Shown: piece by piece, positions 34,665 through 54,790 of the stretch
Numbering within the stretch: position 1 is the first letter of the stretch
Layout of the letters: every line of letters starts with the position of its first letter
Source of the DNA: Pedococcus sp.
GTDB lineage: Bacteria > Actinomycetota > Actinomycetes > Actinomycetales > Dermatophilaceae
Length of the DNA stretch: 64,000 nt
Reading direction: 5' to 3'
Assembly (NCBI GenBank): GCA_039916625.1
Contig: JBDSKZ010000027.1
Span: 5,497-69,496, forward strand
Translations under genes and position numbers: made by a program
The notes under the pieces: generated by a model
What the model was told of the DNA's origin: nothing
Databases searched by the model: none
What the model saw: only the letters and a program-made list of their open reading frames with translations

Positions 34665-37600
34665 TCACGTGGTGGTCGTGGTCGCCGTGACCCGTTGTCC
34701 CTCCGGGCTGAGCACCGTCACGGAGATGCGCAGCACCCCGGTGAGCGGGATGAACGCCTCGTACGGCGGGGGTGCGTTCGGTCCCCGGCGCAGCCGGTTG
34801 CGCACGAGGACGATCTCCCCCGTCCTGGGTAGCCCGCCGGACGCCCACGGGATCTCGTCGAAGGGGAACGACCCGGTCAGGGTGCGAACCCTGGGCGGGA
34901 ACGGACCGAGGGGCGGGAACGGACCTCCGCGGCGGAACGCCCCGCTGCCAGCACGCACGAACCCACCTCCGCCATCAGGGTCGAGCACTCCCGGGAACCG
35001 CCCCGCTCGTTCGGGCAGCACGATGGGCCCGGCGAGGCGCTGTGCTGCGACGACCTCGAGGACGTACGGCGGACGGCGCCGGGCGCTGGCGTTGGTCCAG
35101 ATGCCGACGTGGACGCCTCGACCCGCGATGGCGAACACGTCGACGAGGGAGACCGACACGTCCGGTGCCGGCTCGACCCAACCGGGCACGGTGAGCTCAC
35201 GAACCACCTCGCGGCCGAAGGGGTCGACCAGGCGCACCCTGACATCGACGGGGTCGGCCGCGACCGGCCGGGTGAACCACAGGGCGAGCGGCGACCGCCC
35301 GGCCACCCGGGCCCCCTGCTCGATGACCGGGGCGGTGGCCGCTCCTGCAGGAGGCGTGGCCAAGGGTGTCACCGGGACGTCCGGAAGGGTGACGACCGCG
35401 ATGTCGTCGGCGCCGACCTTCCCGTCCAGGCGGTGCACCCCTGCGGGCAGCACCCGTGGCGGAGCGGTCGTGGTGGAGCGCACCACGACCGCGCGGTGGT
35501 CCCCCCCACCGACCTCGGCCGTCAGCGGCTCGAGCTCCGGCGCACCGGGGGGGACGGTGACGGCGACGACGTCCGACGCTGCCGACGGCAGCCCGCGCTC
35601 GCCCTGCGCCGGGACGGTGTCGACCGGCACGGCGACCGAGCGCAGCAACCAGGGGTCCCAGCGGCTCGGCAGGGCGCCCGTCCAGGTGCTCGAATAGATG
35701 GGCTGCCCGAGGACGGGGTCGACGTCTGTCGGTGACGGAACAGCGGTGACCACCACGTCGGCGAACGCCGGTCCCATCGTCGACACATCGCGGGCTGCTT
35801 CGTCGGAGGTGGTGCGATACAACCGGAACCGTTGCACCGCGATGGGGCTCGCCGCATACAGACGGATGGTCACGGTGCCGTCAGCGGCCACGGACGGTCG
35901 CGCGAGCGGGGGGGACGGCCGGCGGAGCCTCGGTGCCATGGCCGCCTGGAAGTGCTCGTGCGGGGTGCCCGAGTCGGGCCACGGGCTCTCCACCCCGGAC
36001 TTGGTCATCGTGGTGACGAGGAACAGGTGGATGTCGGTCGACCCCTTGGGGAGGGTGGCGTCGTACGTCCGCACTGCGCCGCCGACCTCCTGGAACCGGC
36101 GGAAGGCCGCGCGGCGCTGGGTGGGGGTCATGGCGTCATACGCCGCGCGGAGGTCCACCAACCGCTGACCGGGGACGGCGGAGTCGGGGGCCTTCGGCGC
36201 GAGGCCCGCACGCTGGCGCAGCGAGGTCTCGTTGACCTCCCAGACGATGCAGGTGCGGACATCGGCGCCGGCGGGCAGCGACCACGCGACGCGCACGTGG
36301 CTGCAGCCCTGGGCGTCGAGGGTGCTGCCGAGCGGCACACCGGGCAGCGGCGGCGGGGGCAGCGGGACGACCGGCACCGGGCTCGCGGCGCTCGTGCGAG
36401 CGGGGTGCGGCTCGCCGGGCGACCACGGGGTCGGGGTGGCTCCCACGAGCAGGTGCCGTCGAGTCCATACCTGGACGCCCCACCTGCCGGTGCTGCCGAA
36501 GTCGAGGGTCGGCACGTCGGCGACCACGGCGTAACGTCGCCCACCGTTCCCCTGCGCCGGGCCGGGCACCGCGGTCGCGGTGCCGTCGGCCGACAGGGGA
36601 CGGACGGTGCAGCCGGACGGCACCGGGGCGTCGCCGGCGAACGCGAACCCGAGGTCACGCCGGAAGCAGCCCGCCGGGGTGACCGCGTCCGGGGACAGCC
36701 CAGCCGGCGGCGTCGCGGTCGGTGAGGACATCGGGAAGTAGATCGCCGCGATGTCGACCTGGGTCGGGGTGCGCTCCTGCCACTCGACGGCGACCTCGGC
36801 CTTGAGGGTGCCGGGGCAGGACGGCGAGCCGGAGTAGCGGGTGTCGAGGGCGACCGAGACGAGGCGGGTGGTCTGCGGCGCAGGTTCGTCGCCGATCCAC
36901 CCGACGTCCTGCCACGGCGACCAGATGCCGTGGAGGTCGCTGACGGCGACCGCGTAGCCCAGTCGACGGCCGCCGCCGCCGATGGCGATCTCCTGGCCAC
37001 CGTCGACGAGCGCGAGCCGGTTGTTGCCCGGCTCCCCCTGCGGCCCGTCGGGCGTGACGAGCAGGGGCCGGTCGCCGCCCGCGTCCCGAAGTGGCAGCAG
37101 CGAGACCGCTGGGCCGGCAGTCATGAGGTCGAAGCGCGCCAGCGCCGACTCGGTGACCGGGGACGTGGCTGCGGCCTTGGGCACGCGGTCCCACGAGAGC
37201 CGCACCGACTCGCGCCACGGGGCATCCGGCGCGACCGGGCCCACCAGCCCGGCCCGCACGGAGGTCAGCCCCGTCGGGGTCGGCACGACGAGGTGCGGCT
37301 CCGGAGCCGGGGCGTAGGCAGCGAACTCGGCTCCGCCGCGCTCCGGTGGGGCGAGGCGGGAGTACTTCGCCGTGACGAGGAAGTCGCAGTGGCCGACCTG
37401 TACCTGCAGGTCGTCCATCTGCTCCATCGTGTAGCTCGCGCCGAACCCGCAGGCGAGGTTGAGGAACGGGTCGCTCAGGGCCGGCAGCAGGAGCATCGGC
37501 CAGGGCCCCGTGTCGGCGGTGGTGCCGAGCGAGGACCTGCGGCCGTCCTGCTGCGGCGGGTCGACCGAGCGCGGGCTGGTGACGGCGAACTGCTGGTACT

Positions 37601-53300: not shown

Positions 53301-54790
53301 TGCACCTCGGTCTCGTGGACGTGCCCGAGCAGCAACGTCGCGAGTCGCTGGCCCTCGATCTGCGCGACCGCGGCCACTGGGCAGTGGTGGGGAGTCCTGG
53401 TAGTGGACGCACGACAGCCCTGCTCACCGTGGCTCGGTCGCTGTGCGGCAGACGCGGGCCGGAGTCGCTGCACGTGTACGCCGTCAGTGGCGGGGGCCTG
53501 GCGGCCCTCGGGTCGCTGCCCCACGTGGGGGCCCACATCGACTGGACGGACACCAACCGGGTGGAGCGACTGGTGACCAGGTTGTCGGCCGAGGTCGCCG
53601 GACGTCGAGCCGCCCTCACCCGGCGCGGCGTCACGACGCTGGTCGAGTGGTGGCGCAGCACCGACTGTGGCAGCGCACCCCCACCGATCCTGCTGCTCGT
53701 CGACGACTGGGACCTGGTCGCCGGTCGCCATGACGACCTGACCCTCGCCTCGCTCGTCGACCGCTTGCTCGTCCTGCTGCGCGAGGGCGAGGCGGTCGGC
53801 CTCACCGCCGTCCTCGCCGGCGACCGCACGTTGGGGTTCGGGCGCGCGGGCGGTGCGGTCAGCAACCGTGTGGTGCTGCACCTGACCGACCCTGCCGACG
53901 CGGTCCTGCTGGGGCTGGCGCCCTACCAGCTCGCCGCGCTCAAGGCCCCCGGACGAGGCCTGACCAGCCAAGGACACCAGGTCCAGCTCGCCCTTCCGCC
54001 CGACCTGCCGCCACTGCCCTCCTTGGGACCAGGGGCGACCTGTGCCGTGGTGCCAGCGCCCTTCAACGGCAGGCGGGCACCGCTGCACGTCGACGCCTTG
54101 CCGCCCGTGGTGCGCGAGGACGAGCTCGTCCTCGCCTCGGGACGGACAGACAGCGTTGCGCTCGGGATCGGGGGCGACGACTCGACGGTGCTCGGGCTCG
54201 ATCCGGGGCGCGATGGTCGACGCTGGCTCGTCACGGGCGCGGCAGGCTCTGGCGTCTCGACGACGCTGCTCCTCATCGTGCGGGGTCTCGCCGCGGCAGG
54301 TCGGCCCGTGGCAGTCGTCGGCCACCGCGGTGGCCCCCTCGACGCGCTGCGGGGCGATCCCGCGGTTGCCGCGTGGTGCGACGGGGCGAACACCGCCTCC
54401 CTCGTCGAGGCGCGTCAGCGGGAACCGTCGCTGGCGGTCGTGGTCGACGCCGCCGACGAGCTGATCGACCACCCCGTCGAGACTGTCCTCCGGGAGGTCG
54501 CGCACCTCGTCGACCGGGACTGCGGACTGCTGGTCGTCGGGGCCAACGCGACGGCCCTGTCATCGATGTACCGCGGGATCGCGTACGAGGTAGCGAGGCA
54601 CCGCACCGGGGTCCTGCTCGGCCCCACGTGGACAGCCGAAGGCGGCGTCCTCGGAGTGCGCGCGCCAGTGGACCGAGCGGCTCGACCGGGCCGCGGTCAT
54701 GTGGTGCAACGGGGCTCGTGTACCCCGCTGCAGGTCGCCCTTCCCGACAGCCCCCCGATCCCGGTCGCTGCTCCCCGGGCTGCGGGGTAG
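50372..54790 (+). CDS. FHA-domain, membrane-anchored FtsK/SpoIIIE (EccC/EssC-like) ATPase with three P-loop domains
   Basis: The FHA domain reads RHTVGRSGEADICIDDPRLSRRHTEVCVDAHGVTLRDLGSTNGTRV. A double TM follows (WLAVLLPVPVAAVLAVVVGPTMLAFALMGPVLMVG). Domain 1 has a canonical Walker A (GGTTGAGKSELL), Walker B (VVVDEF) and LATQRP. Domain 2 has GSPGSGRTT with LLLVDDWD. Domain 3 has GAAGSGVST with VVVDAADE. I chose ATG 50372 (MRLQLTV...). The track start at 50222 would leave only about 20 bp to tadA. Confidence 0.85.
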   Translation: MRLQLTVTHRRPSCPGTQALSVVDLEVDAPTGSTAAELMEALAQHLGLPGTSPHPRGRPSGDQVPGEESLNLVVGGVVVAPGAIVGLPPLLDGAALALHPRTLFKDSSTRSSARCRSAVVLAVTHGPDCGRVIDLRPGRHTVGRSGEADICIDDPRLSRRHTEVCVDAHGVTLRDLGSTNGTRVDEAPVGDEPVTVTTASVIHLGDTMVALRHTGAVPAATTTTGEGTLAVNRRPRVLDRHAPASIALPAPPQQPRPTRVPWLAVLLPVPVAAVLAVVVGPTMLAFALMGPVLMVGTALSDRWGARRTYAADLVAHDAELRTARDCIEAACRHETRELTRSFPGPATVLGIVSGPTERLWERRRDDDDALVVTIGRCRQDASLRLLRQATAGVPEQQPQLHDAPCTLSLGEVGVLGLCGEPSAVAASARSLVGQLLTLHSPADLGVVCLLQAEELRNEWVWLGRVPHCHHAFRRRAGPVPAVLGPDTTTVHATVAALATTIRERLANHRSTPWSGSTTLVVIDGAGAFRAVPGLATVLADGPRVGVVCLTLGAERRELPHEAGAVLDLPPHGPPALSLPGHRHDRLVADGVALAWSERLSRSLAPLRDATPSEGPAALPVAVGLLGCRSPLDGAPTDPVTELLTGRSLAEAWRHRPHSTTVPLGVCGTGTFSIDLASDGPHVLVGGTTGAGKSELLRTLVASLALHNTPQHLSFVLVDYKGGAAFRECAKLPHVAGVVTDLDDHLAARALTSLTAELTRRERLLRDAGAADFVSYQASPAGEGTPLARLVVVVDEFRALAEELPAFVDGLVHVAALGRSLGIHLVLATQRPAGVVTADIKANVNLRIALRMRDRTDSEDVVDSPAAASLDPSAPGRAYARVGGSPLLEFQSAHVGSRVVEPSTESVRVRRWTFCPSTPWPVGTTAVEQHTELTAIVAAVQQATTVARLEPAPAAWLPPLPAHVPHCSLDEPPDAFTVHLGLVDVPEQQRRESLALDLRDRGHWAVVGSPGSGRTTALLTVARSLCGRRGPESLHVYAVSGGGLAALGSLPHVGAHIDWTDTNRVERLVTRLSAEVAGRRAALTRRGVTTLVEWWRSTDCGSAPPPILLLVDDWDLVAGRHDDLTLASLVDRLLVLLREGEAVGLTAVLAGDRTLGFGRAGGAVSNRVVLHLTDPADAVLLGLAPYQLAALKAPGRGLTSQGHQVQLALPPDLPPLPSLGPGATCAVVPAPFNGRRAPLHVDALPPVVREDELVLASGRTDSVALGIGGDDSTVLGLDPGRDGRRWLVTGAAGSGVSTTLLLIVRGLAAAGRPVAVVGHRGGPLDALRGDPAVAAWCDGANTASLVEARQREPSLAVVVDAADELIDHPVETVLREVAHLVDRDCGLLVVGANATALSSMYRGIAYEVARHRTGVLLGPTWTAEGGVLGVRAPVDRAARPGRGHVVQRGSCTPLQVALPDSPPIPVAAPRAAG

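Follow-up and report, generated by a model that had tools for sequence, protein, structure and literature searches.

The window analysed here is a stretch of 64,000 nucleotides from Pedococcus sp. (contig JBDSKZ010000027.1) with a G+C content of ~72%; its closest named relative is Pedococcus, and a P. dokdonensis protein is 84% identical to the product of G1, one of the genes discussed below. Between positions 34665 and 54790 the window carries a gene for a 1472-amino-acid (aa) ATPase with an FHA domain and three P-loops, a divergent seven-gene tad pilus operon and, further along the strand of that operon, a pair of giant genes that we call G1 and G2 (Table 1). A preliminary description of this block had the gene layout and coordinates right apart from small corrections, and proposed that all three modules may form one surface or secretion system. 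We find it likely, instead, that two mutually independent units make up the block: the tad operon and the ATPase gene form unit A (45545-54790), and the inserted G1 and G2 form unit B (34665-45223), a translationally coupled cassette of two genes. This degree of confidence attaches jointly to the whole two-unit explanation, including the roles that we propose for both units.

Table 1. Genes, protein segments and intergenic regions of the block, in window coordinates
Feature	Coordinates	Strand	Basis or remarks
G2, 1256 aa, partner of G1	34665..38435	-	N-terminal alpha/beta region, then Ig/FN3/macroglobulin-like beta-sandwich string
G1, 2262 aa, DUF6603-containing family	38435..45223	-	GTG start matches homologue consensus MSLWDxLP
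G1 beta-meander core, residues ~768-1330	41234..42922	-	overlaps region matching DUF6603 in homologues
G1 Ala/Gly/Leu-rich hydrophobic helix pair, residues 727-768	42920..43045	-	conserved; just ahead of beta core
G1 OmpA-like module, residues ~508-620	43364..43702	-	variant motif GYAS...YNxxLSxRRR
Spacer between tadG and G1, 321 bp	45224..45544	-	alignment; motif search in 85 loci
tadG-like pseudopilin/assembly protein, 156 aa	45545..46015	-	Pfam Tad PF13400, E = 1.6e-5; ATGA overlap with upstream gene
tadE/F-like minor pilin, 155 aa	46012..46479	-	Pfam TadE, E = 5.5e-4, slightly under gathering score; GTGA overlap with upstream gene
tadE-like minor pilin, 134 aa	46476..46880	-	Pfam TadE (PF07811), E = 1.6e-9
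flp-like small open reading frame, 66 aa, one hydrophobic helix	46884..47084	-	named from position only
tadC, T2SSF platform protein	47107..48060	-	PF00482, E = 1.3e-18; ATGA overlap with tadB
tadB, T2SSF platform protein	48057..48968	-	PF00482, E = 4e-13
tadA/cpaF pilus ATPase, 407 aa	48977..50200	-	Pfam T2SSE PF00437, E = 2.9e-38
Divergent intergenic region, tadA vs ATPase gene, 171 bp	50201..50371	.	
FHA + two transmembrane helices + three-P-loop FtsK/EssC/EccC-like ATPase, 1472 aa	50372..54790	+	Pfam FHA, FtsK_SpoIIIE

The divergent gap between tadA and the ATPase gene is exactly as long as first described, and a promoter scan found no sigma-70-type consensus promoter in it; the giants are indeed coupled, by a TGATG junction. 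Overlaps by ATGA or GTGA, claimed for five of the six junctions within the tad operon, occur at three (tadB/tadC, tadE1/tadE2 and tadE2/tadG), and the remaining three are gaps of 8, 22 and 3 nucleotides. Pfam families identify six of the seven tad genes (T2SSE, T2SSF twice, TadE twice, and Tad), so the operon stands as a Tad-like operon with TadA, TadB/TadC and TadE/TadG-type pseudopilins; the tadG-like product also has a weak NCBIfam match to the Rv3654c-family TadE-like model. The flp-like gene is assigned by position only: its product matched no family, Flp included, and has no obvious G/XXXXEY processing site, and P. dokdonensis, Knoellia and Kineosporia each have a small open reading frame (ORF) at the corresponding place. 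A typical Flp is likewise missing from the tad-1 cluster of Micrococcus luteus (PMC4322843). No tadV gene for a prepilin peptidase was seen within the block.

The divergently transcribed gene encodes the membrane-anchored FHA ATPase with three P-loops of the FtsK/EccC type that had been described, as Pfam, NCBIfam and inspection of motifs and transmembrane segments agree. Its FHA domain covers about residues 141-205 and is followed by a hydrophobic stretch (residues 259-296) compatible with two transmembrane helices; the P-loops are GTTGAGKS (residue 686), GSPGSGRT (1007) and GAAGSGVS (1289), the latter two non-canonical. The NCBIfam models EssC, EccCa and EccCb span residues 281-1374 of the 1522-aa ORF version of the protein, and all three score under their curated cutoffs (EssC TIGR03928, 453 vs. 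778 bits; EccCa TIGR03924, 359 vs. 509; EccCb TIGR03925, 292 vs. 347). The FtsK/SpoIIIE DNA-translocase architecture is not matched: the three tandem P-loop domains reach the C-terminus with no gamma domain, and the NCBIfam FtsK model aligns to residues 838-919 only. The 20 ATPase homologues compared all keep the phosphothreonine-binding residues GR, SRxH and NG in the FHA domain, and this retention suggests that the ATPase may be controlled by Ser/Thr phosphorylation through this domain. A Ser/Thr protein kinase gene at 30572-32200 (- strand), three genes past the giant pair, is a candidate FHA partner; it has a counterpart in the equivalent place in Knoellia and P. dokdonensis and is absent from the Kineosporia context. 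The ATPase also diverges far faster than its tad neighbours, with ~48% identity between the window and Knoellia vs. 90% for TadA, and just 47-66% among named Pedococcus species.

The FHA/EssC-like ATPase gene and the tad operon form a conserved divergent pair. It occurs in Pedococcus, Phycicoccus and Knoellia, and Kineosporia has it in a context that differs from that of the window, between prfB/ftsEX and a sigma-factor gene (identity to the window 70.5% for TadA and 39.5% for the ATPase); the metagenome loci L094 and L127 likewise show the pairing. To this extent the proposal of a single system stood, in that ATPase and pilus operon stay together across genomic contexts and across orders of actinobacteria; it failed for the giants, which mostly occur without tad. 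The pairing of tad genes with the ATPase is already published for M. luteus, and the giants are unrelated to it. The M. luteus tad-1 operon (Mlut_07500-07560) is needed for Flp pilus formation and natural transformation (PMC4322843), and a single point mutation in Mlut_07490, an FtsK/SpoIIIE-family gene whose product has the Walker A motif GTTGSGKS, cuts transformation at least 1000-fold (PMC8467076). By comparison with that locus, unit A would most likely specify a competence-type or surface Tad pilus that depends on the FtsK-like ATPase for its assembly or for a cargo step. Published for M. luteus, the pairing is now seen to extend to Intrasporangiaceae and Kineosporia as well; this wider conservation makes the ATPase a candidate general component of actinobacterial Tad/competence pili, and possibly a Ser/Thr-kinase-controlled one. 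In P. bigeumensis (L008:3540-6006), a gene for a 481-aa large serine recombinase lies directly upstream of a 5'-truncated tadA, with no FHA/FtsK-type ATPase gene in the 5 kb upstream of it; this looks like the integration of a mobile element into tadA, which would have parted the pair.

The similarity to type VII secretion system (T7SS) ATPases invites a different reading, in which the ATPase would drive a reduced, type VII-like system of protein secretion and be merely co-located or co-regulated with tad. EssC, EccCa and EccCb are its best family matches and cover all three domains, and Actinomycetota possess FHA-bearing EssC variants (T7SSd) with conserved phosphothreonine-binding sites (PMC11217815). 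The Bacillota systems T7SSg and T7SSh are documented cases of T7SS ATPase loci beside Tad pilus genes, a proximity for which no explanation was given (PMC11217815), and in Knoellia a gene for a T7SS_signal/endonuclease protein lies 7 kb from the ATPase gene. We nevertheless think this reading unlikely: besides the sub-cutoff scores, with each gene between the kinase gene (30572-32200) and GDH (58753-63684) accounted for, no Ecc, Ess or WXG100 gene was recognised among them, although small ORFs were not exhaustively screened against PF06013, and the surroundings of the ATPase gene consist of the tad genes, a 156-160-aa ORF, whiB, pdtaS, MOSC and GDH. The pairing with tad, moreover, persists in the other genomic context of Kineosporia, and the corresponding neighbour gene of M. 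luteus gives a transformation phenotype (PMC8467076). The Knoellia koreensis protein (L088:21282-22802; 506 aa, T7SS_signal + Endonuclease_NS_2, encoded between pdtaS and GDH) is a candidate toxin of a T7SS; nothing in the window corresponds to it, and MOSC and GDH come after pdtaS there.

The distribution of the giants is what separates unit B from unit A. Our neighbourhood scan, with one genome per species, gave 94 matching stretches in 79 distinct loci, and wherever the downstream DNA is available, tblastn places G2 directly after G1. Neighbouring tad genes were counted by tblastn with the window proteins in the 64 loci whose upstream flank reaches 5 kb or more, which represent ~28 distinct contexts: tad genes lie within 10 kb upstream of G1 in seven (six Pedococcus/Phycicoccus-type genomes and Mycetocola) and are absent from 57, and ~27 of the 28 context groups are without tad. 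The FHA/FtsK-type ATPase gene lies near G1-G2 in five loci. The P. dokdonensis locus is syntenic with the window, and loci L009, L012 and L013 lack tad even at G1 identities of 75-78%; Jiangella, Microbacterium, Kribbella, Cellulomonas and Pseudarthrobacter carry G1-G2 alone among unrelated metabolic genes. Clustering of the flanks of 85 loci gave no third gene common to several genera. G1-G2 is thus a member of a widespread, uncharacterised, always-paired family without fixed neighbours, and its occurrence without both the tad and the FtsK-like neighbours is the very pattern that the preliminary description had named as speaking against its grouping of the giants with the tad/ATPase unit.

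Conversely, Kineosporia and Knoellia have the tad/ATPase pair without G1/G2. K. koreensis retains the entire backbone, in the order kinase, meaB, thiolase, seven tad genes, the divergent ATPase gene, a 150-aa gene, whiB and pdtaS, with a thiolase-tadG spacer of 265 bp. This intact backbone identifies the giant pair as a ~10.9-kb insertion, made in the Pedococcus/Phycicoccus lineage, that separates the thiolase gene from tadG. Its borders show no meaningful repeats, direct or inverted, and the insertion has neither a tRNA gene nor a GC anomaly. The alternative that all three modules are one envelope system, with the giants exported to the wall by the EssC-like ATPase, the Tad machine or both, has some arguments on its side: G1-G2 lies on the same strand directly downstream of tadG, with a spacer conserved in the six Pedococcus/Phycicoccus-type genomes; Mycetocola has the order tad operon, S8 peptidase gene, G1-G2; and the giants lack signal peptides, yet putative peptidoglycan-binding modules occur in their family. 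It is already largely refuted by the comparative data above, to which can be added that the Mycetocola tad genes have no adjoining FHA/FtsK-type ATPase gene and that the pair is present in Proteobacteria and Haloferax, and we rate it as very improbable.

The spacer upstream of G1 (45224-45544) contains four strongly conserved blocks, CTCTGTGACAGGTCGTTGACC, TGGTTACCTGCA, GGCTTGCATTCGC and TGGCTGCGAGGGG, which are common to the tad-adjacent Pedococcus/Phycicoccus genomes and absent upstream of G1 in other genera. The local promoter and 5' leader of G1 probably lie in this spacer, and the blocks may be a local promoter, operator or leader; a regulatory element carried by the cassette was rejected, as no conservation of the motifs upstream of G1 is seen outside the tad-adjacent clade. 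The spacer gave no Rfam match, its weak terminator-like hairpin (45335-45349) is no better than chance, and promoter and terminator scans were otherwise uninformative. The P. dokdonensis orthologue of G2 (L001:16767-20578) is frameshifted near 18560 and called as genes of 640 aa and 630 aa, so that it is a pseudogene unless the break is a sequencing error; loci L034 and L039, both from metagenome-assembled genomes, show comparable breaks.

Both giants had been called unclassifiable, which is not wholly true of G1. Its homologues fall into 123 clusters (39-100% identity, most of them full length), and many are labelled DUF6603: homologues at 50-80% identity reach PF20248 (DUF6603) at E ~1e-12, while G1 of the window itself stays under threshold. 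The matches to this uncharacterised Pfam family cover only half of it (model positions 8-257 of 502), and a full-text literature search found no paper mentioning DUF6603. Pfam, NCBIfam, PADLOC and PHROGs gave no significant match for G1 or G2 of the window; a weak OmpL47/Big_9 Ig-like hint was seen in G1. The absence of a Sec/Tat-type N-terminus from both giants was upheld by inspection and a Kyte-Doolittle scan, with no signal-peptide predictor applied, and the scan revealed no N-terminal hydrophobic segment in G1, G2 or any relative examined.

The OmpA-like module that the preliminary description saw as cell-wall-binding is recovered at the profile level, in that the G1 family profile matches the OmpA-like domains of PDB entries 6u83, 1r1m and 5u1h, although the match is weak (E = 0.002-0.03) and the motif reads GYAS in place of GHTD. 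OmpA-like domains usually carry the motif GHTD, with a conserved Asp and Arg that contact diaminopimelate. In the G1 family the Arg of LSxRR is invariant and the Asp position is occupied by the invariant Ser of GYAS; Pfam OmpA did not match G1 of the window, and a distant homologue matched it weakly (E = 0.004). An AlphaFold2 (AF2) model of G1 residues 490-1570 has a mean pLDDT of 76 and predicts an alpha/beta fold for the OmpA-like segment (pLDDT 80-91). Next come the hydrophobic helix pair, with Kyte-Doolittle windows of 1.61 and 1.74 and a helical prediction in the model, and a core of ~26 long antiparallel strands, predicted mostly at pLDDT 80-94. Every distant G1-like protein examined has an equivalent hydrophobic segment just before its beta core. 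Foldseek gave the core nothing beyond low-scoring resemblances to very large beta structures, namely the PapC, LptD and SlpA barrels and the ApoB100 beta-belt.

G2 homologues form 61 clusters, none matching Pfam, and the protein has no hydrophobic segment by the Kyte-Doolittle scan. The AF2 model of residues 1-1130 (mean pLDDT 88.8) gave Foldseek matches to complement C3/C4, alpha-2-macroglobulin and FN3/cytokine receptors, and the G2 profile had no match among PDB sequences. An identity as alpha-2-macroglobulin was rejected: the folds are similar, but inspection showed no CxEQ thioester motif.

Beyond the close homologues, the G1 core profile retrieves 1442 representative clusters at E ≤ 1e-3, of which the top 150 are mostly 1700-2600 aa long. 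In L086, a metagenome contig of 72% GC, a G1-like protein is followed by a G2-like one; this distant G2-like protein (L086:8330-11389, 1019 aa) ends in a PASTA domain (E = 3e-5), which is a second, independent peptidoglycan-binding module in the G1/G2 family. Two further metagenomic loci also have a distant G1-like protein: at L087 two ~1100-aa proteins follow it, with Peptidase_M19-like and Zn-phospholipase-C-like proteins upstream, and at L170 the contig ends within the next gene. Plasmid-borne copies include a 2554-aa + 1114-aa pair on Paracoccus aminophilus pAMI4, a DUF6603 giant adjoining a PLD-domain protein on a Mycetohabitans plasmid, and the megaplasmid of R. tropici CIAT 899, where G1 and G2 (E = 1.6e-104) are followed by a third gene homologous to the last gene of L087. 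This proteobacterial third gene has a weak PLD-like similarity (BLAST E = 7e-5) and no Pfam or PDB match, and searches with the third genes of distant pairs found no relatives in the window or in any of 85 loci. Haloferax mediterranei pHME322 (L173:9757-22870) encodes a G1-like protein of 1858 aa, a G2-like protein of 1370 aa and a 1142-aa Baseplate_J protein (E = 2e-12) in three genes with overlapping stop and start codons, with a MoxR ATPase gene downstream; with this archaeal plasmid copy the family crosses a domain boundary.

A phage origin of G1-G2 was rejected, as 2.9 million viral contigs contained no relatives and a BFVD fold search was uninformative. A link of the pair to a phage-tail-like or baseplate-derived apparatus, whether as its remnant or as a variant, as the Baseplate_J gene overlapping the pHME322 pair might suggest, is highly improbable in view of the same viral searches, the lack of PHROGs matches, and the absence of sheath, tube and spike genes and of any Baseplate_J relative from the window and the 85 actinobacterial loci.

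What the giants do can be proposed with low confidence only. G1 and G2 may form a stoichiometric complex that would bind peptidoglycan via the OmpA-like module of G1 and engage a membrane or lipid surface via the hydrophobic helix pair and the giant amphipathic beta-sheet, with G2 supplying an Ig-like rod or scaffold; the complex might exit the cell without a Sec signal, by lysis or another route. The hypothesis of an envelope- or membrane-directed, possibly toxin-like action draws, at the same low confidence, on the two peptidoglycan-binding modules, the conserved hydrophobic helix, the amphipathic sheet and the phospholipase-type neighbours that recur in distant relatives. A bolder version, which we can entertain only tentatively, is that G1-G2 is the core of an undescribed multi-component machine acting on the envelope or on membranes across Bacteria and Archaea, in which a giant without a signal peptide would dock on peptidoglycan and insert its beta-sheet into, or wrap it around, a lipid surface; if true, it would be a machine functionally like the toxin complexes discussed below and structurally unrelated to them. 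A still weaker addition is that in Pedococcus and Mycetocola the complex might have been recruited beside Tad pili for a shared surface function.

Several observations weigh against the two-unit explanation or the roles attached to it. G1-G2 lies downstream of tad in two lineages, the Pedococcus clade and Mycetocola, which goes beyond what random insertion would lead us to expect. In G1 the OmpA-like motif is without the usual Asp, the TM-scores of the core are so low (0.15-0.3) that its reading as a barrel or belt is a resemblance only, and no enzymatic or known functional domain was found in either giant. As for unit A, the EssC/EccC architecture without an FtsK gamma domain fits protein translocation better than DNA translocation; many metagenome FHA-EssC-like genes at ~30% identity have no tad neighbour, so that the pairing is clade-limited; and the orthology of the ATPase with Mlut_07490 rests on family annotation, two transmembrane helices, a similar Walker A motif and position.

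Beyond the giant pair lie the Ser/Thr kinase gene, meaB and a thiolase gene, and beyond the ATPase gene come whiB, pdtaS, MOSC and NAD-GDH. The labels thiolase, meaB, pdtaS and whiB that had been given to the flanks all hold, and the PPOX label beside the ATPase gene was left unconfirmed, with no Pfam match in the window at that place; the syntenic P. dokdonensis gene carries a PNPOx_N domain. Two ORFs, 54793-55263 (-) and 55273-55755 (-), separate the ATPase gene from whiB, neither with a significant Pfam match; the second shares 50% identity with the Knoellia gene of 150 aa in the equivalent place.

Under the two-unit explanation, the proposed three-module secretion system dissolves into a known arrangement and an unrelated insertion, which spares follow-up on a false lead. 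The giant pair merits study in its own right, as a family of more than 1400 clusters of very large, well-conserved proteins that ranges from Actinomycetota to a haloarchaeal plasmid. Among known systems, it can be set beside the Tc (ABC) toxin complexes, with which the likeness is one of analogy and not of homology. Like Tc complexes, the family has coupled giant genes of ~2300-2600 aa and ~1100-1250 aa, in Proteobacteria a third gene of ~1100 aa, no signal peptides, plasmid-borne copies, and enzyme-like third components (weak PLD-like similarity; PLD/PLC neighbours). On the other side of the comparison, G1 and G2 resemble TcA, TcB and TcC neither in sequence nor in fold and lack RHS/YD repeats, G2 is an Ig/FN3 string and not a cocoon, and the actinobacterial version is without a third gene.

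For unit A there are two points of comparison. With the T7SS ATPases EssC/EccC, including TsdC of the actinobacterial T7SSd, the window ATPase shares the N-terminal FHA domain, the two transmembrane helices and the three FtsK-like P-loop domains (PMC11217815), as well as the restriction of the canonical P-loop to the first position and its best NCBIfam matches; it differs in scoring below all three cutoffs, in its single FHA domain and in having as its conserved partner the tad operon, with no WXG100, Ecc or Ess partner recognised nearby. From the M. luteus locus it differs in that the papers mention neither an FHA domain nor three P-loops for Mlut_07490 (PMC4322843, PMC8467076), and in that a second cluster, tad-2, which carries the major Flp pilin, is needed there. 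Both loci have a seven-gene, tadA-first tad operon of the same gene order (PMC4322843, PMC8467076) and, adjoining tadA on the opposite strand, a gene for a membrane ATPase of the FtsK/SpoIIIE family with two transmembrane helices (PMC8467076), and both organisms belong to the Micrococcales; by this analogy, we infer that unit A is the same kind of locus as M. luteus tad-1 with Mlut_07490.

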